DNA of 64,000 bases from a virus (taxonomy: Duplodnaviria > Caudoviricetes), in the IMG/VR virus record IMGVR_UViG_3300031088_000008, positions 256,001 to 320,000 of that record; one strand, written 5' to 3'. Positions 8,382 to 62,409 of the stretch are shown in pieces (the first letter of the stretch is position 1; each line of letters begins with the position of its first letter). The translations under genes and the position numbers were made by a program. A model generated the notes under the pieces. That model did no database searches and was not told where the DNA came from. It saw only the letters and a program-made list of their open reading frames with translations.

Positions 8382-8794
8382 ATATTGGAAAGTCGATCGG
8401 CATCGGCATAATGGTCGGCTGCGTGGCCGCTTGGGGTTATATCATTACCCCCGAGTACGTTCTGTTTCCCGACCGCGAAGCGCCCATGCGTTATTACTAT
8501 GACGCCAAGCGGGTCTTCAACGAAACGGAAACCAAGGAGTATGGTGACGGCGAGTCCTATACCCAGACCTACACGGGCGCTTGCCCCGACCTGAGCCTGA
8601 TGACGGCCAAGGCGCTGGGCGACAAAAAGCTCACGATCCGGGAAGTCCACGACCTGGGCAAGGAATCGCTCCGGCTGTTCAACACCGCCGAGGAAGTCAG
8701 TCGCCGCAACGAGGCTCTCAAGGCTGCTGGCCAGAAGATCACGGATAGCAATATCCAGTGTGAGCATGGTGATGAGCTCTTCCAAAACCTATAA
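8378..8794 (+). CDS. membrane-anchored hypothetical protein
   Basis: ATGA overlap, N-terminal TM. Confidence 0.65.
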   Translation: MNIGKSIGIGIMVGCVAAWGYIITPEYVLFPDREAPMRYYYDAKRVFNETETKEYGDGESYTQTYTGACPDLSLMTAKALGDKKLTIREVHDLGKESLRLFNTAEEVSRRNEALKAAGQKITDSNIQCEHGDELFQNL

Positions 8795-8835: not shown

Positions 8836-10551
8836 ATGACGGACACTTATTCATGCGGCATAACAGCCCACCGACCGGAAGCGGATCTTTATAATCTGCT
8901 GGGACTTCATCGCGTAGCAACGCGGGAAGAGATCGAAGAAGCTGGTTCAGGCAAGGTGCTAACAGACGATCAGCGGTACGCTTGGAAAGCACTCAGCGAT
9001 CCCACGTACCGTGAGGTCTATGACTTCCGCCACAATACCAAGGACCTGTTCAACGCAGGGTTCTTTGACGACGGGCTCCCCAAGTTGGTTGAGCAATATG
9101 GAACCTACAATCCAACGTTTCAGACCACGTCGCTTCAGAAGGTTCGCAACAACCTGATCAAGCTGATCGGCGGAAACAACGGTGGTCGTCGAGCAGTCCT
9201 GATCACAACTGGCGGAATGGCTCCCATCCACAACGGGCACATCGCAATGATGGAGCGCGCTCGTGAGATCGTTGAGGGCCAGGGCTTTCAAGTAATGGGT
9301 GGCTTCTTTGCCCCAGGACATGACAGCTACGTTAGCCAAAAGTACAACGGAACGGCTGGTATTTCGGCCGTCCATCGTATTGCAATGGTGGAGCTCGCAA
9401 CACAGGACAGTGATTGGCTTGAGGTCGATCCCTGGGCAGCCCGCTACATGCCGGCCGAGGTCAACTTCACGGCGATCGCTCGCCGGATGGAAGCATACTT
9501 GTCCCAGAACTTGGGACAGATCTTTGATGTCTTTTACGTCTACGGCTCCGACAACAGCGGCTTCCAGGAAACTGGCATTCCAAGCGTACAGGTAACGCGA
9601 AGCGAAGTGTCGAGCAAGCTGGTACGCGAGGGTGAGCATCACCACTTGAACCCCCGGGTTGCCAAGTATTTCCAGGAGTATAAGAACCGGGACACGGGAA
9701 ATCTTCCTTACTTGATCCGCAACGAGGAAGACGAGGCAATCGTTGGCTGGGCAAATAGGATGCCGGGCGGTCGTGAGGAGCTCACAAAGCGTCGGGTGCA
9801 GCTTCAGAGCGCGATTCGACTTGCAATCGCACACTTGTTCAAGGGTGCAGGTGGCAATCACAAAGTCCATCTCCTGCCGGTAAGTGAGCAGAAGGAAAAG
9901 GCCACCTGGCTGATCGGTGATCGGAAGGTGATCAGCCTAGATCCATTCTTCCATTACCATGGCGTACACCACCTGGACAGCACTCGCTACTTCAGTCAGA
10001 GCAGCTCACAGTTCTCGGCATTGTTCCGCGATACGCGCTTTGGCTTCGACAGCTTGCAGGAACAGGCAGACAGCATCCCGGACGGCGATTACGTGCTGGT
10101 CGAAGATGACAGCGTGACTGGCGAGACCATCAACAGCGCACGGATGAGACTGGGCGATCGCATCAACATCACGGATGTGATCCTTCTCTCGGACTTTGCA
10201 GACTACAAGGACGACGCCTACTATGATGTGGTGGACCTGAGGGACTTTATCGTTGGAAGTCACATGGGTGGGCTTTCCGTTGTGCTCAATGGTGGTCAAC
10301 GAGGCCGCGCACCATATGCGCTTCCCTACGTGAGCCTTCGCAGTCGGGCAAAGATTCCGCCCTCGGCCGAAATGGAACTCAGCCGTGTGATCTGGCAGGC
10401 CAACGTCCGCTTCTTCACCGACAGCGGGATCCTGATCCGAGATGCCTCGCTGGACTTGCAGGAACTGGCCAACAGCATTGGCTGGGGCAAAGATGGTACC
10501 ATGGAGGACTTTTGCCGCTGGCACGTCGACGCTTTGTTGGACGTGGTGTAA
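8836..10551 (+). CDS. fusion protein: J-domain-like N-terminus + NMN/NaMN adenylyltransferase (eukaryote-type NMNAT-like) + type I phosphoribosyltransferase-like domain
   Basis: DLYNLLG...ATREEI...AWKALSDP..R..YD; GGMAPIHNGH (HxGH), HRIAMVELATQDSDWLEVDPW, VYGSD, SSKLVR; YVLVEDDSVTGETI (PRPP-binding loop). Confidence 0.8.
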   Translation: MTDTYSCGITAHRPEADLYNLLGLHRVATREEIEEAGSGKVLTDDQRYAWKALSDPTYREVYDFRHNTKDLFNAGFFDDGLPKLVEQYGTYNPTFQTTSLQKVRNNLIKLIGGNNGGRRAVLITTGGMAPIHNGHIAMMERAREIVEGQGFQVMGGFFAPGHDSYVSQKYNGTAGISAVHRIAMVELATQDSDWLEVDPWAARYMPAEVNFTAIARRMEAYLSQNLGQIFDVFYVYGSDNSGFQETGIPSVQVTRSEVSSKLVREGEHHHLNPRVAKYFQEYKNRDTGNLPYLIRNEEDEAIVGWANRMPGGREELTKRRVQLQSAIRLAIAHLFKGAGGNHKVHLLPVSEQKEKATWLIGDRKVISLDPFFHYHGVHHLDSTRYFSQSSSQFSALFRDTRFGFDSLQEQADSIPDGDYVLVEDDSVTGETINSARMRLGDRINITDVILLSDFADYKDDAYYDVVDLRDFIVGSHMGGLSVVLNGGQRGRAPYALPYVSLRSRAKIPPSAEMELSRVIWQANVRFFTDSGILIRDASLDLQELANSIGWGKDGTMEDFCRWHVDALLDVV

Positions 10552-23036: not shown

Positions 23037-24305
23037 TTACCAGTCGGAGCCACCACCGCCACCGCCCGAAGAGCCACCGCTGTCGTAGCTGGGTGAAGGG
23101 CTGGAGTAGTCGCTGCTGGACGACGAGCTGCTACCACCCCAGCTGGAACTGCTCGAACTTGCTGCTGCGGCAGCCGCTGCATCACGCGACCGGCGATCAT
23201 CGTCATCGCGCTGGCGCTGGCGGCGATCCTCGTCATCACGATCCTGCTGGCGCTTTCGGTCGCGTCGCCGCTGTTCCTCGGCCGCCGCTGCCAGTGCTGC
23301 CGCTGATGGCCCAGTATCGCGCTTGGGAGGAGCGGGTGGCGGGCTGTAGTTGCGCGCTGCCGTTGGCGTCCTGCCGACCGACGGCGAGGGCTTGGTGAAC
23401 GTTTCCCGAACTCGCTCCACGACCGTTGGCTTGGGCTTTGCTGCCTCGGCTGCACGAGCGGCCGCTGCGATTGCCTCATCCTTTTTGCGCTGAATGTCCC
23501 GCGCTACGGATGCCAGCTTGTACTGGACTGTTTCATTGCTGGGATCGAGTTCCAGCGCCTGCTGGTACTTGAGTTGTGCGTTGATCAGGTCGTCCCTGTA
23601 TTCATAAGTCTTGCCATCGCTGATCAGACCGTTGATGCGGAGCAGAAGCGCCTTGGCCTTTAGATGCTTGGGACGCTGGATGAACAAGTAGAATGCCAGC
23701 CAGGCCAGACCGAGGACCAGGAAGATCGCCAGAATGGTAAGCCACGTGTCGCTGCTCTCGGCCTTTTCCACCGCCGTCTGCGTACCAGGAGCCGTTGCTG
23801 CCAGCTGCTGGGGCGTGACCACTTCCTTGGTGATCGTCGTGCCGATTTGATCGACGCCTTGGCTGATTGCTGCCCCGTAGTCGCCGGCCTTCATCACCGG
23901 CTTCATCGCCTCTGTGATCTCCACCGACCTAGCATCCGTGAGCTCGCCTTCCAGACCATAGCCGGGAACGATCTGGAGCCGCCGTGGATTGCTCATGCTG
24001 ACCAGAAGCAGGACGCCATCGTTTCGCGTCCGGTTGCCGATCTTATAGTAGCGGAAGGCGTTGTTGCCGTACTCGACGCCACTGTAACCCTCCATCGTGG
24101 GAGTGGTCAGAACGACGATGTGGTGATGAGTCGCGTCATAGATCTGCCGCGTCTGCGCCTCGAGAGCAGCTTCCTGCGCGTCATCGAGGATGTTGGCTCC
24201 ATCGACCACACTTTTGGTGGGATCAAGGGGCGGGGGATTGGGGATTTCAGCAAAGGCCGGCGTCGTCAGCGCGAGCGCGGCCATTGCAAGTAGAATCCGC
24301 TTCAT
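23037..24305 (-). CDS. TPM (YgcG-like) domain membrane protein with TPR-like segment and Gly/Ser tail
   Basis: Signal peptide, VVDGANIL, IG...NDGVLLLV, I.PGYGLEG.LTD, TM, YQQALELDP, GGSSGGGGGGSDW. Confidence 0.9.
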   Translation of the reverse strand: MKRILLAMAALALTTPAFAEIPNPPPLDPTKSVVDGANILDDAQEAALEAQTRQIYDATHHHIVVLTTPTMEGYSGVEYGNNAFRYYKIGNRTRNDGVLLLVSMSNPRRLQIVPGYGLEGELTDARSVEITEAMKPVMKAGDYGAAISQGVDQIGTTITKEVVTPQQLAATAPGTQTAVEKAESSDTWLTILAIFLVLGLAWLAFYLFIQRPKHLKAKALLLRINGLISDGKTYEYRDDLINAQLKYQQALELDPSNETVQYKLASVARDIQRKKDEAIAAAARAAEAAKPKPTVVERVRETFTKPSPSVGRTPTAARNYSPPPAPPKRDTGPSAAALAAAAEEQRRRDRKRQQDRDDEDRRQRQRDDDDRRSRDAAAAAAASSSSSSWGGSSSSSSSDYSSPSPSYDSGGSSGGGGGGSDW

Positions 24306-28774: not shown

Positions 28775-29069
28775 GTTCCGCCCAGGGCTTCAAGCCCATT
28801 CGCTCCTGGAATGCTGTCAAGCAAGCGATGCGACGGTCGGGCGTTTTGTCATAGATGTATCGGCGCATGTCAGCTTCCAGGCGCTCCACCGGATTCTCTT
28901 CCACGATGGTGACTTCATCGGGGAGAAGTTCCAGCAAGTTCTCATCACAGTAGAGACGACCATCCATCGTGATGTCGGTGACGGTGGCAAATCGGATCTT
29001 GTCCCCATACTTGTAGGAAACCTCAAGACCAACTGTGATCCACTTTTTGTTTGTATCAAAGACGTCCAT
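28725..29069 (-). CDS. hypothetical protein (SH3-like N-terminus)
   Basis: TAATG coupling to gltX. Confidence 0.65.
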   Translation of the reverse strand: MDVFDTNKKWITVGLEVSYKYGDKIRFATVTDITMDGRLYCDENLLELLPDEVTIVEENPVERLEADMRRYIYDKTPDRRIACLTAFQERMGLKPWAEREEEKAAARRKELGFD

Positions 29070-30349
29070 TACTTGGCATCCCTTATGCGACCCAGAGTCT
29101 GCTCCATTCCTAGGAGGACCATTACATCAAAGATCGGCGGACTGATTGTGCTGCCGGTCAGTGCTGCGCGAAGAACACCGGCGACCACGCCCAGCTTCAA
29201 ACCCATTACGTCTGCGTAGGCCTTGACACGGTGCTCCAGGTGCTCCTTGTCCCAAGGTGTTCCAACCAGCAGCTCATCCAGTTCCTCGAGGATCTTGCCG
29301 TCTAGCTTTTCGCCAGCCTTTTCCTCGATGAAGATGGGTCGCAGGTCCCAGAGAAACTGGGTTCCCTTCGCGAGAGCGTTGAGGTCCGTGGAACGCTCAC
29401 GGAGCGCCGTCATTGCCCCAACAAGTGTGGCATCGTCCCAGTCAATGCCCTGCTCATGCAGAAGCGGTCCAACCCAGTTCCTTGCAAGGATTTCCGGCTC
29501 GGTGTTCCTGATGTAGTGGCCGTTGATGCTGGCCAGCTTTTTCCTGTCCAGACGAGCTGCACCCTTGCCCACGTCCTTGATGTCAAACCACTCAATGGCT
29601 TGCTCCATCGTGAACAGCTCATCGTTGCCATGTCCCCAGCCCAGTCGTGCCAGGTAGTTGACCATTGCGGGTGCCAGGATGCCCATGTCCATCCGGTACT
29701 CGTCAACCGATGCCGCGCCGGTTCGCTTGCTGAGCTTTTTGCCATCCTCGCCGTGAATCAGGGGAATGTGACCATACCGGGGAATGGGCCAGTTCATTGC
29801 CTTGTAGATGCTCAGCTGACGGAAGGCATTGTTCAGATGGTCGTCACCGCGAATCACATGAGTAACACCCATGTCGTGATCATCCACAACCACTGCCAGC
29901 ATGTAGGTTGGCGTGCCATCGCTTCGGAGAATCACAAAGTCATCGATATCCTGGCGCCACGTTACCGTGCCTTGTACCAAGTCCTCGATGGTCTGCTCGC
30001 CCTTGATGCCACGGATTCGGACAGCCCGCTGGCCATCTTCATTGACGTTGTTGGGATCATAATAGGCCATGCCCTGGTCGATCAGCTGATTGGCTACCTC
30101 GACGTGACGGGCGGCATTCCTGCTCTGCAGCACGATATCCTCGTCGGGATCCAGCCCCAGCCAGGCCAGCCCGGTGAAGATTGCCTCGATGGCATCGGGA
30201 GTGTTTCGTTCCTTGTCGGTGTCCTCGATGCGGATCAGGAACTTTCCACCCATATGCCGAGCATAGAGCCAGTTGAAGAGTGCCGTACGGGCTCCTCCAA
30301 TATGAAGGTAGCCCGTTGGACTTGGCGCAAAGCGTGTCACTACTGTCAT
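29069..30349 (-). CDS. gltX: glutamate--tRNA ligase
   Basis: TRFAPSPTGYLHIGG, RIEDTD, VVVDDHDMGVTHVIRGDDH, KKLSKR, LRAALTG anticodon domain. Confidence 0.96.
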   Translation of the reverse strand: MTVVTRFAPSPTGYLHIGGARTALFNWLYARHMGGKFLIRIEDTDKERNTPDAIEAIFTGLAWLGLDPDEDIVLQSRNAARHVEVANQLIDQGMAYYDPNNVNEDGQRAVRIRGIKGEQTIEDLVQGTVTWRQDIDDFVILRSDGTPTYMLAVVVDDHDMGVTHVIRGDDHLNNAFRQLSIYKAMNWPIPRYGHIPLIHGEDGKKLSKRTGAASVDEYRMDMGILAPAMVNYLARLGWGHGNDELFTMEQAIEWFDIKDVGKGAARLDRKKLASINGHYIRNTEPEILARNWVGPLLHEQGIDWDDATLVGAMTALRERSTDLNALAKGTQFLWDLRPIFIEEKAGEKLDGKILEELDELLVGTPWDKEHLEHRVKAYADVMGLKLGVVAGVLRAALTGSTISPPIFDVMVLLGMEQTLGRIRDAK

Positions 30350-38124: not shown

Positions 38125-39807
38125 ATGGCCATTGTCTCGCGTCAGATTGCACTGAATGTTGCCCAGGGAACATTCAATGGAAACTATTCATCTACCAACC
38201 ATGTTCGCCTAACGGACAACAGAATGGTGATCCTCTACAACATCACCGGGGTCTCACCTGACCTTTACACCAGAACCTTTCTGGTCGTTGATATGCCCGA
38301 CGGCCTTGACACCAACATTGCCAGTCCAACCATTACTCGCACGGTTGGTTATCTGGATCGAGAAGCATTTCAGGGAAATGGTGTCAGCGTTGCCCGGCTG
38401 AGTGACACCCGCTTTGTGGTAAGTGAGCCGCGCAGCACGGGAACGGTCAAGCTGGAAATCTTTGAGATTTCGGGGACCACCATCACCCGCGTGTTGAATA
38501 CCACAACGGCTCTCAACACCAATGTTAAAAACAACGTTACCAATGCCAGTCATGTATTGATTCCACTGTCAGACACTACCTTCATTCAGACTTGGTATAA
38601 CACCAACAACCAAACCTCCTATTCAGTTTTTAAGTTCACACCTGCAGTGGTTGGTCCCCCAGCGGTAGCTGCTTCACTGGGTCCAATTCGAACATTCACG
38701 GACTCGGAGGCTGATCTGTTGAGTGATATCTCATGGCAACAGATTCCAGGTACCACGGATGTGATGATTGTCAACAGAACGGTTGCGGCAAACTATTTCT
38801 CCTATGCAACTCGCATCTGGCTGGTAAACAGCATCGGAGGAGGTCTCCGGACACGACTTACCGTTGATGGTGAACCAATGTTCCTGGGCCCCAACCGAAT
38901 GGTTGTAAGCAAATGGGGTCGACAAACCTACCATGATAAAAATGGAACCGTTGAAAGCTGGTCAGTTTCTCAAAACTACAATGGATCCAACGATGACAAT
39001 TATCTATTCCGCCCAATCATTCTGCCACTCAGCAATGACCACCACTTGCAACTACGACGCGAATACTTTCAAACACTAGATACTTCAATGTTCATGAAGG
39101 CAGTTCGGCGCGAGGACAAGAACTTTCACACGATCAGTACCTGGTCGGCCAATAATTGGTGGGGTAAGGTGGTTCCCTCTTCTACATCAGCGACAAAGTT
39201 CACGCTTCCTTTTGATAAGCGGTCACCAATTGTCACCAGCAAGAATAACCTATTGTGGGCAGGATTGTCCGCGGGAACCTATCGTCTGAATATGCTTCAG
39301 CCGATTGCTGATGCACCAGTTAATCCGCCGGCAACCGATCCACTGCCGCAACCCACTCGTGTATTGAACGCACGTTTTCTCTTCAACGACACTACCAAAC
39401 TCCCAGCTAAGATTTCAGTAGCTGGCACAGGCTTCCGATTGCTGAGCTACCCTGATTCTTCAATAGGTACCTCTGGTGTTCTAGCCACACCCGCGCATTT
39501 CGATGGAGCCGCGTTTTCAACTGATTTCACGTTCACATTCCCCGCAGGCATGACCGTTGCGGTTGTCAGGTACCTAGCCCAGTCTGAACCCAGCTATGAC
39601 TTTTATTCAATTAGTATGGCAGGTTTTACCATTCAAGGAAGTCAAAGTGGTTACAACAGTGACGACTTGGTGTTTGTGGAAAGAACGGTACCAATTTCAC
39701 CCTCGGCAACCAGTGCCACGATGAACGTCAGCTATAGAACAGACGGTTCAGCCAATCGAGGCATTGCAGGTGTCTACATTTCCTCGGTGGAGTTCCGTCC
39801 GCTATAA
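38125..39807 (+). CDS. putative virion fibre/receptor-binding protein (beta-rich, extra C-terminal domain)
   Basis: Thr/Ser/Asn-rich; paralog of 39850 and 41941; TAAATA at 38097; C-terminal SEPSYDF...YRTDGS (CUB/MAM-like). Confidence 0.65.
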   Translation: MAIVSRQIALNVAQGTFNGNYSSTNHVRLTDNRMVILYNITGVSPDLYTRTFLVVDMPDGLDTNIASPTITRTVGYLDREAFQGNGVSVARLSDTRFVVSEPRSTGTVKLEIFEISGTTITRVLNTTTALNTNVKNNVTNASHVLIPLSDTTFIQTWYNTNNQTSYSVFKFTPAVVGPPAVAASLGPIRTFTDSEADLLSDISWQQIPGTTDVMIVNRTVAANYFSYATRIWLVNSIGGGLRTRLTVDGEPMFLGPNRMVVSKWGRQTYHDKNGTVESWSVSQNYNGSNDDNYLFRPIILPLSNDHHLQLRREYFQTLDTSMFMKAVRREDKNFHTISTWSANNWWGKVVPSSTSATKFTLPFDKRSPIVTSKNNLLWAGLSAGTYRLNMLQPIADAPVNPPATDPLPQPTRVLNARFLFNDTTKLPAKISVAGTGFRLLSYPDSSIGTSGVLATPAHFDGAAFSTDFTFTFPAGMTVAVVRYLAQSEPSYDFYSISMAGFTIQGSQSGYNSDDLVFVERTVPISPSATSATMNVSYRTDGSANRGIAGVYISSVEFRPL

Positions 39808-39849
39808 TAGCGAACATTGAATAAATATGAAAAGCAATAGGAGCAAAAT

Positions 39850-41133
39850 ATGGCTGAGGTAATTACACGAAGCATTCCTGCCATTCCCTACAATGGTGGA
39901 ACACTTAGGACCGCGCAGCCCTATTCGGCAGCCGTCCAGCTAACCCCAACTCGCATGATCTGGACTTACTGTCAGAGTGCTCCTGATTGGCGTTACTTTG
40001 TGGTTGTTGACACTCCAGAAGGTTGGGCCAATGGCGGCACACCAACGGTCACTGTCTCGCGTATGCAGGATCAGAAGACCTACAGGGGCCTGAGCCTTCA
40101 GATGGTACGTCTAAACGACAACGCCTTTATGATCATGGATCTTCAAAGTCTTCAGAGCAATAACTGGTCCTATGAAGTTTTTGAGATCAACGCCGATAAC
40201 GTGTTCACCAGGACTGCAACCAATCTAGACGCCTACGATGTTGTGCAGACTCAGATCTCCAACTCCACTGGCTACCTAAATTCCGCACAGACTGGTACCA
40301 ATGCCAAGTACACCAATGTCGCGACATTGGTTCCACTTGCAGACAATCAGTTTCTCTTTGCTGGGTTCAACAATACCTCAGTGGTCAGTGTCTCAGGCGT
40401 ATGTACCTACAATACCACAACCAAGGTGGTGACATTCAATAATAGTAATCTGGTTGCCCTAGGCTCATTCAATAATGCTGGCTCTGCCAACTCCGCGGAA
40501 GTTTACTGGCGCTCGATCCCCAACAGCACCAAGAAGGCTATCACGTTTAAGACTGCTAACACCTTGGCTGCATGGAATGGCACCGCGATGCAGTTCCAGA
40601 TCCTGGTAGTCAATGCCGATGGTACGATTGCAGCCAACTATCCACGTTTTGAGAACTCGCTGGGTAACTCACTTGTCACTCAAGCACAGGACATGGCTAT
40701 GATGTCCGACACTCGTATGGCTCGCACGTCCTGGACTTGGAACTATTACTATGGATTGAGTGGTGGTACAACTAGCACCGTGGGAACCGCAACCAATGAT
40801 GGCTTTGGTAGCTTTACTTCAACGCAATCCCCCAATCCACAGTTGGCGTTTCCAATGGACCCCAACTATGTGATGCTGTGGGATCGTACCCACTTTGCCA
40901 GCGCAACCAGCGGCAACATCAAGATCAAGATCACCCGTCGCGATGATGCCAACATGGCAAGTCAGAGTCCAGGAAGCGCCATCAGTGCAACTGGCTTTGA
41001 AGTAACGGCTCCCTGGATCCAGACTTGGTACAATGACAGTCGCCCCCGCATGTTGCCAAATGGCGATGTGTTTTGGTGGGGACTTGATGCTTCAGGCAAA
41101 CTGGCCTGGAACATTTTGAAGAATGCATCGTAA
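39850..41133 (+). CDS. putative virion beta-propeller-like protein
   Basis: Shares V.L...RM.W.Y.Q..P.W and K..RR.D.N motifs with paralogs; TAAATA at 39822. Confidence 0.65.
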   Translation: MAEVITRSIPAIPYNGGTLRTAQPYSAAVQLTPTRMIWTYCQSAPDWRYFVVVDTPEGWANGGTPTVTVSRMQDQKTYRGLSLQMVRLNDNAFMIMDLQSLQSNNWSYEVFEINADNVFTRTATNLDAYDVVQTQISNSTGYLNSAQTGTNAKYTNVATLVPLADNQFLFAGFNNTSVVSVSGVCTYNTTTKVVTFNNSNLVALGSFNNAGSANSAEVYWRSIPNSTKKAITFKTANTLAAWNGTAMQFQILVVNADGTIAANYPRFENSLGNSLVTQAQDMAMMSDTRMARTSWTWNYYYGLSGGTTSTVGTATNDGFGSFTSTQSPNPQLAFPMDPNYVMLWDRTHFASATSGNIKIKITRRDDANMASQSPGSAISATGFEVTAPWIQTWYNDSRPRMLPNGDVFWWGLDASGKLAWNILKNAS

Positions 41134-41158
41134 GATATGAGCGTTAGGATAAGTGTTA

Positions 41159-41182
41159 GGAGTGGGTGGAAACCCCCACTCC
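41159..41182 (+). terminator. hairpin between structural genes
   Basis: GGAGTGGG-TGGAAACC-CCCACTCC. Confidence 0.5.
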
Positions 41183-41229
41183 TAAAGATCAGATCGATGA
41201 AGAAGCCTGTTCGTCCCCAGGAATGGTGG

Positions 41230-41937
41230 ATGGCAACAAACCTCTTTGTCAAGAGTACTCCAGCATCCCGACCCGCTACCGGCAACTATGCGGCAACTGA
41301 TCAACCCGCAGACATCATGGCGTGGAACAACACCGGTCGAGTGGTTAATGGTGCGGGAGTTCGTCCCGCTACTGGAAACTACGTGGCAACCGATCAACCC
41401 GCAGACATCAATCAGTGGGGCATCACCGGTGCTACCCAGCAGGCAACCGATATCCAGAGACTTGTCGCTGGTAATTACAACTATGAGAGCACTCCGCCGG
41501 CCGATAATGCTTGGTGGGATGAGACTTCAGCGGTTGTCCGCAGCGCACCAAGCGTTCCAGCGCCAACGAGTGCCCGCTATGCTCAAAGCCAGACCACACC
41601 CACTGATAACAACTGGTGGGATGAAACAACGGGAACAATCGTTGGAGCCAGCTCTGCTCGACCAACCAATGCCCAGTATGCACAAAGTCAGGCCACACCA
41701 GAGAACAATAACTGGTGGGATGAGACAACTGGCACAACAGCATCCGCCAATATCGCGGCGCCCACAAGCGCTCAATATGCCCAAGACCAAACAACACCAG
41801 TGGACAATACCTGGTGGGATGAAACAACAGCGACCTCGGTTGCTCCACCATCCACATCGCGACCAGCCAGTGCTGATTATGCCTATGATCAGCCAACGCC
41901 GGCTCCAAACGATTGGATGACCTATCAAGGAGGATAA
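41230..41937 (+). CDS. repeat protein, about seven ~33-aa units
   Basis: RP..A.YA..Q.TP.DN.WWDETT units. Confidence 0.8.
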   Translation: MATNLFVKSTPASRPATGNYAATDQPADIMAWNNTGRVVNGAGVRPATGNYVATDQPADINQWGITGATQQATDIQRLVAGNYNYESTPPADNAWWDETSAVVRSAPSVPAPTSARYAQSQTTPTDNNWWDETTGTIVGASSARPTNAQYAQSQATPENNNWWDETTGTTASANIAAPTSAQYAQDQTTPVDNTWWDETTATSVAPPSTSRPASADYAYDQPTPAPNDWMTYQGG

Positions 41938-41940
41938 AAG

Positions 41941-43158
41941 ATGGCAACTACAGTTCGCTCAATTGGTGCAATGCCCTTTCAGGGTGGTTCATTCAACACC
42001 GACAAGACCGGTCATGGAATGGTTCGCCTGTCCACATCGCGTATGGTCTGGCTTTACTATCAGACCTCTCCCAACTGGCTCGCGGCCAGTGTCATCGACG
42101 TCTCGGGTGGCATCACCAGTCAGGGTACTGCCACGCTGACCAATCAGCAGCTACTGATGCCTTTGACGCAGAGCAATTACATGACCTGCGCTCGAATCAA
42201 TCAGACCACGTTTATGATGATGACTGGCGTCTACACTGGCAACATGAGCTGGTACGTCTTTGAGGTTGATCCTCAGGGAGTATTCACTCGCGTTGACATG
42301 GGTCAGTTTGGCTTTGGAACCACTACCACGGCTGTCACGCTGGCAACGTTTGCTCAAACCAATTTTAAGATTGTTGAACTCAAGGACAACCTCGTGATGT
42401 ATGTTGCACAAGGTACCAATGGTTCTTCGAGCAGCACAACACAGGGTGTCAAGGGAACCTACAACACCACAACCAAGACAATGGCGTGGGACGTTGCGCC
42501 AACCATCTTGTTTTCCAACTTGATCAACAACTGCGAGATCACCGCTAGGCCCATTCCTGGACGTGATCTAACACTAATTCAGCACCGTTACTTTAGTAGT
42601 GGTGTGGGCGAACTTCGCGGTGCAACTGGTGTGGTAATCAACAACCAAACTGGTGCCATTCAAGTACCATGGAACAAGCTACCTGTGGCAACTGCCAACA
42701 TTGGTCTAGGAGATATGGTACCACTACCTGGTGACCGCATGGCATACTTGACCAGCAATTACAGCATCGCGTGGGTCTCAATTGATTACACGGCTGGCAG
42801 TTTTATCAGCCTAGGTTCCAGCGGCTTTACCAACGTGACCGCCATTGATACTGCGGGTCACTACTTGTTGCCGCTGACAACCGACTATGTGTTGAAGATG
42901 ACTCGCAACTCCCTGAGCAACCCAGTGAACTTTCCTCACCGGTTCAAGGTTATCCGCCGAGTGGATCAGAACATGAATGAACAGAGTGCTGCCAGTTCTC
43001 AGAACGGCAACACAGGCTTCAGTCTAAATGGAACGCCAACAACTTACGCGAACTTCCATCAGACCTATCCTGAGTTCATTGATGGCAAGGTTGTCTGGTT
43101 TGGTCTTGACCGTAACAATAACCAGTTCAGCTGGACCGTTGTTGGCTTGGAACCCTAA
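41941..43158 (+). CDS. putative virion beta-propeller-like protein
   Basis: Paralog of 39850 (MVRLSTSRMVWLYYQTSPNW; KVIRRVDQNM; VVWFGLD). Confidence 0.65.
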   Translation: MATTVRSIGAMPFQGGSFNTDKTGHGMVRLSTSRMVWLYYQTSPNWLAASVIDVSGGITSQGTATLTNQQLLMPLTQSNYMTCARINQTTFMMMTGVYTGNMSWYVFEVDPQGVFTRVDMGQFGFGTTTTAVTLATFAQTNFKIVELKDNLVMYVAQGTNGSSSSTTQGVKGTYNTTTKTMAWDVAPTILFSNLINNCEITARPIPGRDLTLIQHRYFSSGVGELRGATGVVINNQTGAIQVPWNKLPVATANIGLGDMVPLPGDRMAYLTSNYSIAWVSIDYTAGSFISLGSSGFTNVTAIDTAGHYLLPLTTDYVLKMTRNSLSNPVNFPHRFKVIRRVDQNMNEQSAASSQNGNTGFSLNGTPTTYANFHQTYPEFIDGKVVWFGLDRNNNQFSWTVVGLEP

Positions 43159-45049: not shown

Positions 45050-45298
45050 TTAATCTCGGTGGCCGATGCCACGTTCCCAATAGCGGGCTTCCGGCCCACA
45101 AGTGTTGAAACCCAGTTTGCGCCACAGCCAGGACCGCTGGGTATCGCAGCGCGCAGGCGCGATCACTCCCGGACCCTCAACCAGTGTATGACGAGGTCGA
45201 AGGTGTGGGCTGACACATTTCCGGTTCTGCCCGGCCGGCCAGCTTCCACCATTCCACCTGCAACCAAAGCAGGTCTTGCCCTGTCCAGGTTCGATCAT
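45050..45298 (-). CDS. small Cys-rich protein
   Basis: CFGCRW...C...C...CGPEARYWE. Confidence 0.65.
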   Translation of the reverse strand: MIEPGQGKTCFGCRWNGGSWPAGQNRKCVSPHLRPRHTLVEGPGVIAPARCDTQRSWLWRKLGFNTCGPEARYWERGIGHRD

Positions 45299-45930
45299 AC
45301 GAGCTCCCACGCGGGATCCTTGACCGGCTGTCGGGCGAAGAACTTCTCGATCATCGCCTTGACATCCTGGAACAACTGGGGATCACCCTCGGTCAATCCG
45401 GGCAACACGTCTGCCTTTTCCTGCACCCACTTCCGAGCAAAGCCCGGATCGTGAGCCACGATGCTGGGCAAGTTGCTCTTGATATCAGCGAGCTTGACCG
45501 ACTTCCGCTCCGCCGTTGCAAGCCAGGCATGCTCCTTGTCGAGATTGCGCCGGAATGCCCGGTTGCCATCTTCCAACTTGGAAACATCGCTGCACTCATA
45601 GACCCCGGCGATGATCGAGGCGCAAACCTCGCTGCCAAACTCCTTGAACGCCTCGCCGATGTGCTGGCCGGTTGTGGTCGTGTCCTCAACCACATCGTGC
45701 AGCAGAGCAACCGCAACCGTCACCGGATCATTATCACGGGACTTTGCGATCATCTTGGCCACCTGGATGGGGTGAACCTCGTAATGGGCCTTGCTGTACT
45801 TGCGCCGCTGGCCACCCAGCTCAGGATCAGGCTTCAGCGCGTGGTTGCGGTGAGCGTTGATCATGAACGCCATAGCCTTCACGACTATGGGGTGCTGCAT
45901 CACATCGGTGGTTGTTTCTTCGGTCATCAT
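45295..45930 (-). CDS. HD-domain (p)ppGpp-hydrolase-like protein (SpoT/Mesh1 small alarmone hydrolase fold)
   Basis: AH..QRRKY...Y..HP..VA, ALLHDVVEDT, VKLAD..SN. Confidence 0.85.
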   Translation of the reverse strand: MMTEETTTDVMQHPIVVKAMAFMINAHRNHALKPDPELGGQRRKYSKAHYEVHPIQVAKMIAKSRDNDPVTVAVALLHDVVEDTTTTGQHIGEAFKEFGSEVCASIIAGVYECSDVSKLEDGNRAFRRNLDKEHAWLATAERKSVKLADIKSNLPSIVAHDPGFARKWVQEKADVLPGLTEGDPQLFQDVKAMIEKFFARQPVKDPAWELV

Positions 45931-47025: not shown

Positions 47026-47687
47026 CAGTTGAGCAACCTATCGGGGTTGGTAAGCAGGATCTCCCGCTCCATTTCAATATTGCCGCGGACCACCTCGCTC
47101 AACGCTTTGGCCTGATGGGTGCTGAACATTGTCTCGGGGTCCAGCTTTTCCAGGAAGTCAAGCCGCCCCTTCAGGTAACCCTCGCGGCCATAGCTTTGAA
47201 ACTCTCGCCAGACATCGCGAGCGTACTCCAGGTACTTGCAAGTGGGAGCGAGAAAGATGCTCATGTCGGCATCGTTGATGATTGAAAAGATCAGCGCCTG
47301 TCTGGGAGCCACCTTGTGGTACTTGGTGGTCATGATCAGATCCGTGACAGTGTTCTGCTTCAGCAGCGCGTGACGATGAATGTCCCGTCGTCGGGCATAT
47401 TCAACCCACCGTGCCGCGCTTGCTTCTTCGTTGTCCTTTCGACCAACCTCATAGACCACATCGTGGTAAAAGAGTGCGAAGATGACGAGTGGCTGGTAGC
47501 CATAGTGGCGGAACACAAACTGGATGGTCTCCAGAATGTGCTGCCACGTATGGTAGTGTCGTCCAGCAGGTGATCCCTGGTAGGCCGCACGGATGGCGAG
47601 ATACTCCCGCCAATCCGGTTTCAGCCCAAATTCCTTGTGGGCCTCATTCCAAGCCCACGCGAGATAGAGATCCTGCCTTACTTTCAT
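47025..47687 (-). CDS. metal-dependent HD phosphohydrolase (COG4339-like)
   Basis: RHYHT..HI, FYHDVVY, DNEEASA, TKYH, DADMSI, EY...V.REF. Confidence 0.88.
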   Translation of the reverse strand: MKVRQDLYLAWAWNEAHKEFGLKPDWREYLAIRAAYQGSPAGRHYHTWQHILETIQFVFRHYGYQPLVIFALFYHDVVYEVGRKDNEEASAARWVEYARRRDIHRHALLKQNTVTDLIMTTKYHKVAPRQALIFSIINDADMSIFLAPTCKYLEYARDVWREFQSYGREGYLKGRLDFLEKLDPETMFSTHQAKALSEVVRGNIEMEREILLTNPDRLLN

Positions 47688-49342
47688 CGCTCTATCGTAA
47701 CATCAGTTGCCTGTGCGTCAACTTCATAACGACGGAGCAGCTTGACAGTGTTCATCAGACCATAGGCGGCCGTGAACGCACCAAACCGGGGACCATCGCT
47801 GGAACCCAAAAAGCACTCATAGAGGGCTTGGAACCAGCTTCGAAGAGGATCAAAGCCGTGTGCCTTACCCACCTCGTAGACTTGGAACTGATATGCTTCA
47901 GCGTCCAAGCCCGGCTCCATGAGGACCAGACGATCCGCCAGATCCATGAACGCCGCTTGCTCCTGGTACGTTGGAGTCCTCAGATGCTGGCTGTAAAGCC
48001 CCTGAGCGGTTGCGTATGCAGTCACACGATGGGCCATCAGATGCACCCATGCCTTGTCAGCATTGCTGAGCGGCCTCTGGGCATCCAAGTAACGGACAAT
48101 CTCTTCCGCGTTGGTGCTCTGTGCGACGATCGCCAGATTCAAGAGAAGCGTGAAGGGAATGTCCGGAACCTCGCTGGTGTATCCATCGGCCTTGAAGAAC
48201 CAGGGACCATCGTTGAAGCCCAGTTCCTTCTGGCGCAGCTTGATGTACTCATCCTCGAACTTGGGGACGAGTTCCGCGTGAAGGGGCTTGGCAGCCTTGG
48301 GGTTCTGGAACATGAACAACTGAAGCGAGCCCGTGGTTCCATAAGTCAACCACTCCTCGATTGTGAAGCCGTTGCCCTTGCTCTTGCTGATCTTGGCACC
48401 ACCCTTGTCGAGGAAGAGTTCGTAGGTCATGTTCAGCGGGGGAGTGCCGCCGAGGATACGACAGATCTTGCTCGACGCCTTTACGCTGTCGATCAAGTCC
48501 TTTCCACTCATCTCATAGTCAACGTCAAAGTAGAGCCAGCGCATTGCCCAGTCCACCTTCCACTGAAGCTTGCTGCCACCGTTGCCCATCTGGACAATCC
48601 CGGTGTCAAAGTCCTTTCCATTGTTGTGGACAACCAGGCACGTTGGCTGATTCTCGGGAGTCACTGGGTAGCAGTAATCCTGAGTCAGCCGGCCCTCACG
48701 AAGAGGAAGGAATGGACTGTAGGTTGCACGGCGCTCTTCACCCAGCGTGGGAAGCATCACGTCTTGAATGGCATTGAAGTTTTCCGCCACGTGAGTCAGC
48801 ATGGCGTTGAACCTGCCGCTCCTGTAATAGCGCGACGAGCTCACAAAGGAAACCCGGCTGCGATCGGAACTGGCACCAACCACCGAGCCATCATAGGTCT
48901 TCAGGATGTTGTCCACGAAAGCGATCAGACGATCGTTGTTGGCCTCCGCAAAGCTGACCTGATCGACCATCATCTGCGTGGCGCCAGCGTTTTCCTGATA
49001 GGGGCTGGGGATGGTGCTCAGCGGCTTACCCAGATGATCGTTCATCCATTCCGGCAGACCATCGGGAACCTTCCGCATCGCATCATAGTCATCGCTGAAC
49101 ATGATCAGTCGAGTGTTGTAGGCGTTGTCCGTGAGTGCGTCAAATGCCTTCATGACCCACAGGGTGCGGACGACCTCTGCGAACGTTCCAATATGCGGAG
49201 CGCCCGAGGGACCATAGCCGGTCTGAAAAGTCACAGTGTCGCCGGCCACCTTTCCCTTGCGGGCAATGTGATCAATCAGCTTCCGTGCCTCTTGAAACGG
49301 CCAGCTCTTGGCTTGCTCAAACATATTGGTCCTTTCTATCAT
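47684..49342 (-). CDS. lysS: class I lysine--tRNA ligase
   Basis: TGYGPSGAPHIGTF.EV, SDDYD..RKVP, KLQWKVDWAMRW, KISKSKGNG, GPRFG. Confidence 0.96.
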   Translation of the reverse strand: MIERTNMFEQAKSWPFQEARKLIDHIARKGKVAGDTVTFQTGYGPSGAPHIGTFAEVVRTLWVMKAFDALTDNAYNTRLIMFSDDYDAMRKVPDGLPEWMNDHLGKPLSTIPSPYQENAGATQMMVDQVSFAEANNDRLIAFVDNILKTYDGSVVGASSDRSRVSFVSSSRYYRSGRFNAMLTHVAENFNAIQDVMLPTLGEERRATYSPFLPLREGRLTQDYCYPVTPENQPTCLVVHNNGKDFDTGIVQMGNGGSKLQWKVDWAMRWLYFDVDYEMSGKDLIDSVKASSKICRILGGTPPLNMTYELFLDKGGAKISKSKGNGFTIEEWLTYGTTGSLQLFMFQNPKAAKPLHAELVPKFEDEYIKLRQKELGFNDGPWFFKADGYTSEVPDIPFTLLLNLAIVAQSTNAEEIVRYLDAQRPLSNADKAWVHLMAHRVTAYATAQGLYSQHLRTPTYQEQAAFMDLADRLVLMEPGLDAEAYQFQVYEVGKAHGFDPLRSWFQALYECFLGSSDGPRFGAFTAAYGLMNTVKLLRRYEVDAQATDVTIER

Positions 49343-59475: not shown

Positions 59476-59808
59476 ATGTCAAGCGAAACCAGTCTCACCA
59501 GTATTTACGTCATCGGTCCTGCGGAAGGACCATATAAGATTGGCTACAGCGGCAACCCCAGCCACCGTTTGTCCACTTTGCAAGTGGGAACCACGGACTT
59601 TCTGCACCTCCACTACAGAGAGGAAACAGAGACCAGCAAGGCCAAAGTGATCGAAAAGCTGATCCACCGGCAACTGGGGCACAAGAGGATCCGTGGGGAG
59701 TGGTTTAACGTCACACTTGACGAAGCGATCTCCGAGGTCAAGTTCGCCTTTATCCGTTGGGAAGACGAACCTGCCTTGGAGTTCCGCTTTAAGCGCCGGC
59801 TACTTTAG
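59476..59808 (+). CDS. GIY-YIG / T5orf172-like protein
   Basis: IYVIG, YKIGYS.NP..RL..LQ.G, EK.IH..L...R.RGEWF. Confidence 0.88.
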   Translation: MSSETSLTSIYVIGPAEGPYKIGYSGNPSHRLSTLQVGTTDFLHLHYREETETSKAKVIEKLIHRQLGHKRIRGEWFNVTLDEAISEVKFAFIRWEDEPALEFRFKRRLL

Positions 59809-60284
59809 GCGGCCAGAACCTTGTTGATGGTTGCGCTGGCCTTGCCCTTGTCCAGCGTGGCGCCGAACACGGCGACCAGGTGCTTCATCAGCATACCCAC
59901 CACGCCCTTGGGACGCTCGCCCATCGTGTTGAGTGCGGCCTCGATTTCACCGCGAATCTCGTCCTCGCTGGGCTGCTTCGGCATCAGCGACTCCAGGATC
60001 TCCAGCTCACGAAGGCTCTTGGCGTCCGTGGGCACGAGCGCCAGGGTGTCCCGGACTTGCTTGATGCCCTTTTGAACAGCCGCGATGGCGTCCTGCTCAT
60101 CGGCCTTGACCGTCGAGAAGTCCACACTGCGCTGATCTTCCGGCAGCTTTGCCTGTTCCTTGATCAGGCGATCCTTGGCATTCGCCGTCGCCAGAGCCTG
60201 GATGCCCTGAAACGAGCCGGCCAGTGGATCACGAGCCTTTCGCAGTTCGAGGGTTTTGGCGTTCAGCGCCACGAGAATGCTCAC
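59805..60284 (-). CDS. GatB/YqeY domain protein
   Basis: ELEILESLMPKQ.SE.EI, G.LMK.L...D...S. Confidence 0.8.
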   Translation of the reverse strand: MSILVALNAKTLELRKARDPLAGSFQGIQALATANAKDRLIKEQAKLPEDQRSVDFSTVKADEQDAIAAVQKGIKQVRDTLALVPTDAKSLRELEILESLMPKQPSEDEIRGEIEAALNTMGERPKGVVGMLMKHLVAVFGATLDKGKASATINKVLAA

Positions 60285-61351: not shown

Positions 61352-61666
61352 TCACGCGCCAGTCAATAACGGATACTGGCGTCCCTCAACATAAGCCAGT
61401 TTTGCCTGCAAGTCGTCGCGATTGTTTTCCACCCAGCAGTAGAGCATCATCACGTATTCGTAATGGGCAACCAGAGGCCCAATATCCTCGGGCCACATGT
61501 CATTGGCTGCACGGTTCATGGTGATCATGTCCGTGATGATGCCCCATCGGTCCGTTCGACCACGAAGCCACTTGAGTGCGCTTTCGCGACATACCAGGGA
61601 AAACCCCTGGAAGTCCTTGTAGGTCTTCACAGGGGCCGGCCCATCACTGAACGTCCAGGGGATCAA
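61352..61666 (-). CDS. hypothetical protein
   Basis: Overlaps the stop of the 2H gene. Confidence 0.6.
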   Translation of the reverse strand: MIPWTFSDGPAPVKTYKDFQGFSLVCRESALKWLRGRTDRWGIITDMITMNRAANDMWPEDIGPLVAHYEYVMMLYCWVENNRDDLQAKLAYVEGRQYPLLTGA

Positions 61667-62409
61667 ACAAAATAGTCCTTGCCAAACGTCAAGTGCAGGT
61701 TCCAGTTCGTGGGGATGTCAAACTCCTCACGGATCTGGCGCAGCTTGGGAGCGTTCACGACAATGAACCAGTGAGTTGCCTTCCGATCCCCAGTGGTGTC
61801 GCCGGTGTAGCGAACCTCAGGAGTGTAGGTGAACTCAACCACCTCATTCTCATACTTGCCCCACAGTGCGTTACGCTCCGCCTTGGGAACATCCAGCATG
61901 TCGTTGACGCCACGAGTGATCGTGATGTGCGGAGTGTGGCTGGGAGCCTGCAGACCAAAGCCCGGCTCCATCGTGATGTTCATCAACTCCCGGTTGACCC
62001 ACCAGCGATAGTACCGTGCGATCTCAGGATCCACGTTGGCAACCGCCCAGTAGTGATACTGATTGCGGTAGCGCGCCATACGCTCCAGCGTGGAACGATA
62101 CTCCTGTCCACCCTTGGCGTTGAGGAGCACCTTTGCGAGCTTTCGACCCGCAAGCTGTGCCTCGACCACGTCGGCTTCCGTATAAGCGTCCTTGATAGCA
62201 CGGAGCGCATCGTCGAGCACAAATCCATCGTTACCGCGCAACGTGAACTTGTCAACGTCCAGCTGGTTTACGGCGAAATTGTGGAACTCACTGGCCACCC
62301 GATCCTCACGCTTTGCCAGTGCGGCGTTGCGGTTGGGTTCATAGTGGATCGTGCCTCGTCCCACGAGGGTTCCTGCTGGCCGGGCCAAAAGAGTGGTGCG
62401 CTTCGTCAT
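61663..62409 (-). CDS. 2H phosphoesterase superfamily protein
   Basis: Two HxT motifs, PHITI and LHLTF, ~75 aa apart. Confidence 0.7.
   Translation of the reverse strand: MTKRTTLLARPAGTLVGRGTIHYEPNRNAALAKREDRVASEFHNFAVNQLDVDKFTLRGNDGFVLDDALRAIKDAYTEADVVEAQLAGRKLAKVLLNAKGGQEYRSTLERMARYRNQYHYWAVANVDPEIARYYRWWVNRELMNITMEPGFGLQAPSHTPHITITRGVNDMLDVPKAERNALWGKYENEVVEFTYTPEVRYTGDTTGDRKATHWFIVVNAPKLRQIREEFDIPTNWNLHLTFGKDYFV

Follow-up and report, generated by a model that had tools for sequence, protein, structure and literature searches.

How would a huge phage use a single protein in which a nucleotidyltransferase domain of the NMNAT type is joined to a sequence resembling a phosphoribosyltransferase (PRTase)? 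The question is raised by one gene in a 64,000-nucleotide stretch of viral DNA, the window, which corresponds to positions 256001-320000 of G000:C1, an IMG/VR virus record of 416,714 bp with a completeness of ~90% by CheckV. A first-pass annotation of the sequence took the gene, at positions 8836 to 10551, for a three-domain fusion of a degenerate J domain, an NMNAT and a PRTase that might rebuild nicotinamide adenine dinucleotide (NAD) by itself. The three-domain architecture (J-like, NMNAT-type and PRTase-like) stands, with a PRTase part that is weak but real, and the protein belongs to a real, widespread and uncharacterised family that can be tied to NAD metabolism with good confidence. The fusion probably builds a NAD-type dinucleotide from a base, phosphoribosyl pyrophosphate (PRPP) and ATP. 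At a probability of roughly 0.55, we favour the reading that this PRTase and NMNAT fusion is one component of a module, shared with a NadE-like enzyme and an oxidative enzyme, that supplies NAD during infection.

Domains of the fusion protein

The open frame extends from 8827/8836 to 10551 on the plus strand, and the ATG at 8836 yields 571 amino acids (aa). The closest relatives begin in the same way (MxDTYxCGI), so the coordinates first assigned to the gene, 8836..10551, are right. All of the strings quoted in the first-pass annotation are present in the translation: GGMAPIHNGH at aa 126-135, FAPGHDSYVSQK at aa 158-169, YVLVEDDSVTGET at aa 419-431, and HRIAMVELAT and SDWLEVDPW, which were also located (aa 192-200). 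An AlphaFold2 model built on an alignment of 75 homologues has a pLDDT of 95.3 and a pTM of 0.94. Residue conservation is likewise given for an alignment of 75 homologues. The features of the gene, all on the plus strand, are as follows.

8836..10551, plus strand: whole gene, the J-like / NMNAT-like / PRTase-like fusion, 571 aa and stop (open reading frame list and translation)
8878..9039, plus strand: degenerate J-like domain without the HPD loop, about aa 15-68, with DLYNLLGL and AWKALSDPTYREVYD (N-terminal profile)
9055..9144, plus strand: conserved linker between the J-like and NMNAT-like domains (AGFFDDGL ... TT.xxK, aa 74-103); G75 and F76 invariant, A74, D79, T98 and K102 in at least 90% of homologues
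9187..9705, plus strand: NMNAT-type (HIGH-superfamily) adenylyltransferase domain, about aa 118-290 (PF01467, PDB, Foldseek)
9211..9240, plus strand: GGMAPIHNGH, the (T/H)xGH nucleotidyltransferase signature; G126, P130, H132 and H135 invariant
9610..9627, plus strand: SSKLVR, aa 259-264, counterpart of the second NMNAT/NadD signature; S260 invariant, R264 in at least 90% of homologues
9868..10233, plus strand: divergent type I PRTase-like core, about aa 345-466 (VIA-align, residues 46-167 of the C-terminal model)
10090..10128, plus strand: PRPP / ribose-5-phosphate binding loop YVLVEDDSVTGET, aa 419-431; D424, D425 and G429 invariant, T431 in at least 90% of homologues
10234..10548, plus strand: family-specific C-terminal subdomain (DLRDF, GGL, RAPYxLPYV, W..N), aa 467-571 (conserved residues)

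The identities of the domains and the conservation of their catalytic-type motifs are observed directly. PF01467 matches aa 124-239 with 34.3 bits (Pfam cut-off 21, E 3.1e-8), and NMNATs are the only significant PDB sequence matches of the middle domain, namely those of Arabidopsis thaliana (phmmer E 1.1e-12), human NMNAT3 and NMNAT1 (E ~1e-10) and a fungus (2e-5). Foldseek of the model against PDB gives 63 matches at E<=1e-3, including 9rpk (E 1.8e-7), 1kku (E 1.1e-6) and NadD entries (E 1e-5 to 1e-4); among the rows listed, all are NMNAT or NadD save NadR (rank 27) and PPAT (rank 44). The best sequence and fold matches are thus plant and human NMNAT, a likeness well beyond chance and in keeping with the eukaryote-type NMNAT originally proposed. 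The best NCBIfam model, the NMNAT equivalog TIGR00482, scores 40.9 bits, far under its cut-off of 112.45, over the first ~75 profile positions. The middle domain is therefore best described, from its sequence, as a divergent NMNAT/NadD family member rather than a standard equivalog. SSKLVR occupies the place of ISSTxxR, which we take to be the second signature motif of NMNAT/NadD. Taken together, these matches identify a divergent, bona fide NMNAT-type domain with predicted adenylyltransferase activity. Two loci from Mycobacterium genomes (L053, L054) match the NMNAT part alone (residues ~89-259, 35% identity) and are without the PRTase-like domain.

The likeness of the C-terminus to PRTases is real but weak. 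The PRPP loop placed there by the first-pass annotation is present, with D424, D425 and G429 unchanged in all homologues aligned, and it fits the type I PRPP pattern of four hydrophobic and two acidic residues followed by xxTGxT. Sub-significant sequence matches are all to APRT (E 0.14-0.4) or ComF (E 1.2), always at this loop. Both hhalign, for which canonical PRTases were taken from genomes carrying the fusion family, and HMM alignments put YVLVEDDSVTGET on the PRPP loop of APRT. Residues 300-571, modelled alone from a 24-sequence alignment, reach a pLDDT of 93.1. In VIA-align, a fold search independent of Foldseek, PRTase-fold proteins fill 19 of the first 22 rows for this model, with 89-138 residues aligned and Z 8.0-6.2, where Z 7-8 is the usual best for unmatched models. 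These rows comprise HGXPRT, purine PRT, OPRT, APRT, XPRT, PRPP synthetase, PurR and PyrR; the top row is 4z1o, with a root-mean-square deviation of 5.4 over 138 aligned residues and a Z of 8.0 that unmatched models also commonly attain. The PRTase matches scarcely cover the following subdomain of ~105 residues, in which D467, R469, D470, G479, R491, Y494, P497, R504 and N523 are invariant. The invariant Arg and Asp residues of the C-terminal domain outside the loop are R384, R401, R469, R491, R504, D467 and D470. We regard this region as PRTase-like, of type I and divergent; it is predicted to bind a ribose-5-phosphate ligand and may carry out transferase chemistry.

The N-terminal region had been described as a J domain lacking HPD, and the profile evidence agrees. 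When 11 N-termini, that of the window protein and those of related loci, are combined into a profile, it matches 37 chains in PDB, all of them J domains (best E 1.6e-4), and its alignment has an 11-residue gap precisely where J domains carry the YHPD loop; the HPD tripeptide is absent from the fusion sequence. The Pfam DnaJ model matches aa 17-36 with 14.3 bits, under its cut-off of 27.8. A J domain without HPD is unlikely to drive Hsp70, and so the J-like domain is unlikely to do so; we regard it as structural. Not every family member has it: for 12 of 24 related loci, the tblastn alignment to the query begins no earlier than residue 39. The protein is probably a bifunctional enzyme with a structural J-like N-terminal domain.

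Partner genes, distribution and the link to NAD

The association of the fusion with other genes is also a matter of observation. Conserved neighbours were found by all-against-all comparison of flanking open reading frames (ORFs) and identified by Pfam and NCBIfam. The first belongs to the NAD synthase family (PF02540; TIGR00552 100-114 bits against a cut-off of 63.65) and the second is a PhyH/2OG-FeII_Oxy_3 oxygenase, that is, of the 2-oxoglutarate (2OG) type; sometimes the two form one fused protein of 564-649 aa. Most bacterial loci, and several viral ones, have them adjacent to the fusion. The oxygenase gives way to a radical S-adenosylmethionine (SAM) enzyme in some anaerobes and CPR (candidate phyla radiation) bacteria. 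The tblastn tallies of each partner below cover 31 loci; flanks of 6-7 kb were taken wherever the contig was long enough.

NadE-like enzyme: 23 of 31 loci
2OG oxygenase: 17 of 31 loci
RaSEA-like radical SAM enzyme: 5 of 31 loci
Different radical SAM enzyme, Clostridia-type loci: 3 of 31 loci

An oxidative partner of some kind thus occurs in 25 of the 31 loci, and none of the 31 has oxygenase and radical SAM together. The radical SAM enzyme of CPR-type modules and one viral module matches TIGR01210 (RaSEA) with 184-194 bits, under the cut-off of 212; that of the Clostridia-type loci is of a different family. Six loci have neither a NadE-like nor an oxidative partner by tblastn, namely L045, a 2.2-kb contig on which Pfam finds a radical SAM gene, and five loci of a huge-phage clade. 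When whole records of this clade were searched, both partner genes were found 8-12 kb from the fusion in four of five, the fifth record being 39% complete. Among nine fusion-carrying viral records, eight have the NadE-like gene and seven the oxygenase, and both partners occur in all four that are at least 90% complete. In L079, a viral record that lacks the oxygenase, a RaSEA-like radical SAM enzyme is present instead. In the window phage, the partner genes lie upstream of the fusion and to the left of the window:

G000:C1:252459-253487, outside the window, ~10-12 kb upstream of the fusion: NadE-like gene
G000:C1:253647-254417, left of the window, ~10-12 kb upstream of the fusion: 2OG oxygenase gene

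These two are 39-40% identical to the module of a Cellvibrio metagenome-assembled genome (E 4e-59 and 9e-33), and the PP-loop SGGxDS motif of the one and the HxD...H...R residues of the other, the oxygenase, are intact.

Gene fusions link the same activities. Lengths of 1,131-1,429 aa occur in 21 of the 150 top-ranking representatives of the C-terminal domain. Four proteins of 1,152-1,212 aa were scanned with Pfam (P0129, P0139, P0146, P0180), and all four combine NAD_synthase, 2OG-FeII_Oxy and CTP_transf_like, followed by the C-terminal domain. P0165 joins oxygenase, NMNAT and C-terminal domain, and P0168 joins NadE, NMNAT and C-terminal domain. At the sequence level, the fusions confirm that the NadE-like enzyme, the oxidative enzyme, NMNAT and the C-terminal domain would serve one pathway. 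The idea of a one-gene system did not hold up: in bacteria and phages the fusion is found together with a NadE-like amidase and with either a 2OG oxygenase or a radical SAM enzyme, and in some proteins it is fused to them.

Further genes accompany the module in particular lineages. On a 184-kb viral contig, an ADP-ribosylglycohydrolase gene (L008 4910-5872; PF03747, E 1.9e-65) stands between the oxygenase and fusion genes. In Clostridia-type loci (L039 7616-11018 and its equivalents in L047 and L049) the fusion is followed by a GNAT, a second radical SAM enzyme and a family-less protein of 606-620 aa, and P0123 is a fusion protein with a GNAT appended at its C-terminal end. In some loci the module is accompanied by an ATP-grasp ligase and a family-less but conserved protein of 236-290 aa (L048 3837-6277; L056 8717-9589); ORF clustering finds the latter in 5 loci. 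In a complete 436-kb huge-phage record, the homologue of the module oxygenase (G010:C1:256966-257718) has one in-frame TGA.

Several lines of evidence tie the family to NAD. NrtR is an ADP-ribose-responsive repressor of NAD genes, and in 2 CPR loci the module has NrtR-like Nudix regulators at its flanks (Pfam NUDIX and NrtR_WHD; NCBIfam NtrR model E 6e-36, under its cut-off). With the NadE-like partner and the NMNAT matches, these neighbours bear out the link to NAD metabolism that had first been proposed. The NadE partner also suggests a deamido, nicotinate-type intermediate rather than direct use of nicotinamide. In a Shapirobacteria genome of ~1.0 Mb, the fusion is the sole PF01467 match and the adjoining NadE-like gene the sole PF02540 match; neither this genome nor a Curtissbacteria genome has a match to PF04095 (PncB/NadV) or PF01729 (NadC). 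The module may thus be the only recognisable NAD-synthesis machinery in two CPR genomes. A Collierbacteria genome and two large genomes have canonical NAD genes besides the module.

The same is true of the window phage, which carries a canonical NAD salvage cluster elsewhere in its record:

G000:C1:37169-43563, outside the window: canonical NAD salvage cluster (loci L002, L006, L072), with NadE, nicotinate PRTase, a Nudix protein (238 aa), a NadM-type NMNAT (215 aa) and an isochorismatase-family PncA-like protein
C1:38175-39488: the nicotinate PRTase of this phage, PF04095, 437 aa (NF003704 441.6 bits against 379)

Judged by its gene content, the cluster is a complete predicted nicotinamide-to-NAD route, and because this set is complete the module would be a second NAD system in the phage. 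The module is then either redundant, or takes another precursor, or yields a variant product.

A word-indexed search found 146 full-length homologues at E<=1e-3 among 8000 scored candidates. The closest relatives are 53-98% identical, on contigs of 370-470 kb, and the distant ones 30-37%, on contigs of up to 1.67 Mb. A profile of the C-terminal domain finds 1,211 representative clusters (50% identity) at E<=1e-3, and 595 of these reach E<=1e-30. The full protein occurs in the isolate Paraliomyxa miuraensis and other Myxococcota, in Chthonomonadales (Armatimonadota), in the CPR groups Shapiro-, Collier- and Curtissbacteria, in Acidimicrobiia (Actinomycetota), in Clostridia metagenome-assembled genomes (Bacillota), in Cellvibrio and in Saprospiraceae. 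Viral contigs of 96-465 kb bear it as well. A quick tree, rooted for drawing only, places the window protein with good support among six huge-phage sequences that form a clade, and it puts viral sequences at no fewer than four separate places. Source names for the family are hypothetical or automatic NadD-type. In 50,697 GenBank phage records, tblastn found nothing for the whole protein (E<=1e-5), for its C-terminal domain (E<=1) or for the short viral form in L008 (E<=0.01), and a single-protein scan with the L008 form matched itself alone. In the ESM Atlas, a cluster of 755 members, ~488 aa long and 53% viral, comprises shorter fusion forms, and a CPR (Gottesmanbacteria) cluster of 611-aa proteins, 88% of them with Hydrolase_3 (HAD), aligns structurally to residues 284-571.

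A cultured phage, the Acinetobacter jumbo phage vB_AbaM_ME3, has the module in split form. In BFVD, the C-terminal model matches an uncharacterised ME3 protein (E 2.9e-5), ME3_299, which the family profile also finds (E 3.6e-11; hhalign probability 96%). Its gene overlaps by 4 nt the start of ME3_298, annotated as NAD synthetase (PF02540), and ~2 kb off lies a 2OG oxygenase, ME3_305, 35% identical to that of the window phage (E 3e-34). The PRPP loop of ME3_299 is degenerate (DHD..NG). A nearby gene is annotated as an Appr-1-p processing protein, a Macro-type name for which Pfam finds no family. The NMNAT domain was not found in the ME3 cluster; ME3_297 was considered as the missing NMNAT and ruled out (hhalign probability 0.1%). 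About 5 kb from the ME3 module genes is a Ter-type cluster (L098 143-4033; ME3 209142-213032) of StiP with PELOTA_1, HAD, PRTase_2 and TerD-like genes.

Proposed pathway, competing readings and phage setting

We infer the substrates, the order of the steps and the role in infection as follows. The type I PRTase-like domain would make a mononucleotide from PRPP and a pyridine base, probably nicotinate, and the NMNAT-type domain would adenylylate this product with ATP to nicotinate adenine dinucleotide. The NadE-like PP-loop enzyme, with the 2OG-Fe(II) oxygenase or, in anaerobes, the radical SAM enzyme, would then convert the carboxylate to a carboxamide, yielding NAD+. In a phage, the module would supply NAD during infection and may also help against NAD-depleting defences; the counter-defence role can only be inferred, because the family is also found in many bacteria and is not phage-specific.

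Several points weigh against this reading. The whole case is computational, and the simple scheme leaves the role of the oxygenase or radical SAM enzyme unexplained. A second nicotinate-to-NAD route would be redundant beside the canonical set of the phage, and in three larger bacterial genomes the module coexists with QPRT and additional NadE genes. The gene absences in CPR genomes are suggestive only, because these are metagenome-assembled genomes of unknown completeness. Searched domain by domain with HMMs and structures, the NMNAT-type and J-like parts came through, and the PRTase part held at its loop and was weak by profile and fold. PF00156 has no match in the fusion protein (E<=1), and a PF00156 scan of six family-carrying genomes did not list the fusion genes. 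Foldseek of the C-terminal model against PDB finds nothing at E<=1e-3, its weak top rows being PyrR (best, E 0.029), APRT and HPRT. The hhalign probabilities are 24% against a five-member PRTase alignment and 39% against APRT, over the loop only (24-38 columns). The PRTase assignment thus consists of one loop and a middling fold score, and transferase chemistry is not proven by these, because PRPP synthetases, PyrR and PurR share the fold and the loop. To our knowledge, moreover, every nicotinate, nicotinamide or quinolinate PRTase described so far belongs to type II, and we know of no type I PRTase that uses nicotinate or nicotinamide.

A more elaborate form of the pathway would give the oxidative enzyme a task. 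In this form, the amide nitrogen would come from neither ammonia nor glutamine. The NadE-like enzyme would attach an amino acid, as nitrogen donor, to the carboxylate of nicotinate, and the oxygenase, or a RaSEA-like radical SAM enzyme in anaerobes, would strip off the carbon skeleton by oxidative N-dealkylation to leave the carboxamide. With a type I PRTase in place of type II and NMNAT as adenylylating enzyme, this would be an undescribed NAD pathway of four activities, present in huge phages and many bacteria and the sole NAD route in some CPR bacteria. The idea would account for the mutual exclusion of oxygenase and RaSEA-like radical SAM enzyme and for the NadE-oxygenase fusions; we advance it tentatively, as a possibility well short of even odds.

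Alternatively, the module may use another pyridine precursor or make a modified NAD-like dinucleotide, the oxidative step acting on the base or an intermediate, for example by N-dealkylation or hydroxylation, and the PRTase-like domain taking a non-standard base. The presence of the module beside complete canonical NAD routes, in the phage and in large bacterial genomes, would make sense on these terms, as would an oxidative enzyme that is an obligatory partner, fused in proteins of ~1,150-1,210 aa, a PRTase of type I, unlike known pyridine PRTases, and a C-terminal domain that is elsewhere joined to GNAT or HAD. Such a product is harder to reconcile with the two CPR genomes without other recognisable NAD-making genes, with the NrtR-like regulators that adjoin the module and with an NMNAT domain nearest to true adenylyltransferases of nicotinamide or nicotinate mononucleotide (NMN/NaMN), and we consider it unlikely.

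Less probable still is that the C-terminal domain is not a transferase but a PRPP or nucleotide sensor or substrate holder after the fashion of PyrR and PurR, or else a pyrophosphokinase-like domain, the protein then being a regulated NMN/NaMN adenylyltransferase. PyrR, PurR and PRPP synthetases are indeed among the fold matches, sequence similarity to PRTases is limited to the ribose-5-phosphate loop, and that loop has degenerated in the ME3 homologue. On the other hand, ~20 polar residues of the domain are invariant across bacteria and phages, and the domain stands alone beside NadE in ME3 and is fused to HAD elsewhere, as expected of an enzyme; the Shapirobacteria and Curtissbacteria genomes, furthermore, have no other pyridine PRTase. 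Finally, a HIGH-family domain that is unrelated to NAD, such as a cytidylyltransferase or another nucleotidyltransferase serving, for example, a nucleoside-like secondary metabolite, could be read from the low TIGR00482 score (40.9 against 112.45 bits), the JGI name of one homologue (glycerol-3-phosphate cytidylyltransferase-like) and the Ter-type PRTase/HAD/StiP cluster near the ME3 module, but is very improbable given strong sequence and fold matches that are all NMNAT/NadD, a constant partner of the NAD synthase family (TIGR00552 100-114 bits against 63.65) and flanking NrtR-like genes.

The setting of the gene fits a huge phage by sequence: the window encodes an endolysin-like cell-wall hydrolase, a DNA polymerase exonuclease piece and two synthetases, and many of its ORFs match no family. 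PHROGs has no family for the fusion protein. The gene had also been called early and leaderless, which the upstream sequence does not support. No promoter-like site was found directly beside it, the one upstream (8385-8412) being not above the count in shuffles, and GGTGG stands 1 nt ahead of its ATG. The synthetases are an aminoacyl-tRNA synthetase of the class I Glu/Gln type with an anticodon-binding domain and a class I LysRS (window 29069-30349 and 47684-49342, both minus strand); ARAGORN finds no tRNA gene within the 64-kb window. A TPM-domain phosphatase with a TPR-like tail (23037-24305, minus strand; E 5.6e-33) is unusual for a phage. An HD_4-type phosphohydrolase (45295-45930), a YqeY-like protein (59805-60284) and a weak 2H-phosphoesterase match (61663-62409), all on the minus strand, may have further nucleotide- or RNA-related functions. 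Four large ORFs in series at 38125-43158 on the plus strand (560, 427, 266 and 405 aa) have a GC content of 0.48-0.52, the minimum of the window, and no Pfam or PHROGs match.

Comparison with known NAD systems

NAD supply is a recognised battleground between phages and bacterial NADase defences, to which NARP1, NARP2 and NARP3 are the described phage answers. In the literature covered, with most subscription journals and supplements outside the search, no description was found of an NMNAT-type I PRTase fusion or of a NadE/oxygenase module, and the sources consulted give none of the 1,211 clusters of the C-terminal domain a functional name. The module looks like an undescribed NAD route, a variant of NAD salvage or synthesis. 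As the only recognisable NAD route in some CPR bacteria, it may fill a gap in their metabolic maps. A type I PRTase that works on a pyridine base would be new to enzymology, as would amidation that depends on an oxygenase or radical SAM enzyme.

The two domains have evident relatives. Eukaryote-type NMNATs (9rpk; human NMNAT1 1kqn/1kku; NMNAT3 1nup) share with the fusion the motifs HxGH, SPxxDxY...K, DxW..VDPW and SSxxxR and a fold match of ~215 columns; identity is 19-24%, and the fusion domain is shorter and set between J-like and PRTase-like domains. The type I PRTases APRT, HGPRT, OPRT and UPRT, together with PRPP synthetase, PyrR and PurR, have the core fold and the hydrophobic-DD-x-x-TG-x-T loop in common with the C-terminus, which differs from type I PRTases in being undetected by PF00156 and in its extra family-specific subdomain of ~105 residues. 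At the level of the pathway, the Preiss-Handler enzymes PncB, NadD and NadE carry out the same three steps as those proposed for the module: base plus PRPP, adenylylation and amidation. The module differs in having the first two steps in one chain, a different class of PRTase, and an obligatory oxygenase or radical SAM partner without a classical counterpart.

NARP1 consists of Adps and Namat, NARP2 of Nampt and Nmnat, as in Vibrio phage KVP40 (bioRxiv 10.1101/2024.02.11.579819), and NARP3 of PnuC and a NadR-like protein (PMC13464706); a 2022 survey of viral NAD genes, in its accessible portion, lists NadV, a TIM-barrel enzyme, NadM and NadR only (PMC9503650). Identity with NARP1 was ruled out, no PF13793 match being present in the 416,714-bp record (PF14572 was not searched), and identity with NARP3 by its different architecture. 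The hallmark of NARP2, PF04095, is absent from the fusion protein by Pfam, the phage having it as a separate gene. The fusion differs in architecture from NARP1 and NARP2, as claimed in the first-pass annotation. The likeness to NARP2 lies in the rebuilding of NAD by a phage through phosphoribosyl transfer onto a pyridine base, coupled to adenylylation, as predicted for the fusion. NARP2 relies on a type II Nampt (PF04095), with nicotinamide as its substrate, and does so without requiring an amidase, whereas the fusion joins a type I-like PRTase to NMNAT and is partnered by NadE-like and oxygenase genes that NARP2, as described in the accessible text, does not have.

NadR, in which NMNAT is fused to ribosylnicotinamide kinase (PMC13464706), and NadM-Nudix (PMC9503650) likewise join an NMNAT to a maker or handler of its mononucleotide. 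The fused partner is a P-loop kinase in NadR, a Nudix domain in NadM-Nudix and a PRTase-like domain here, and the NMNAT of the fusion is of the eukaryotic/NadD type, those of NadR and NadM-Nudix being of the NadM/NadR type.

Archaeosine synthesis offers a tentative parallel to the amino-acid-donor chemistry. According to one study (PMC11298593), RaSEA turns a lysine adduct into an NH2-bearing group, and Thermococcus kodakarensis ArcS and two other ArcS enzymes do not use ammonium, asparagine or glutamine. The radical SAM partner of CPR-type modules and of one viral module resembles RaSEA, below the TIGR01210 cut-off; the module would differ from ArcS-RaSEA in pairing it with a NadE-like adenylating enzyme and in acting on a pyridine nucleotide, not tRNA. 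As far as the accessible accounts describe them, none of NARP1-3, NadV, NadM and NadR has a type I PRTase-like domain, this type of NMNAT, a NadE-like partner or an oxygenase, and the fusion family would be a fourth phage architecture, carried by uncultured phages of 96-465 kb and, in split form, by ME3.

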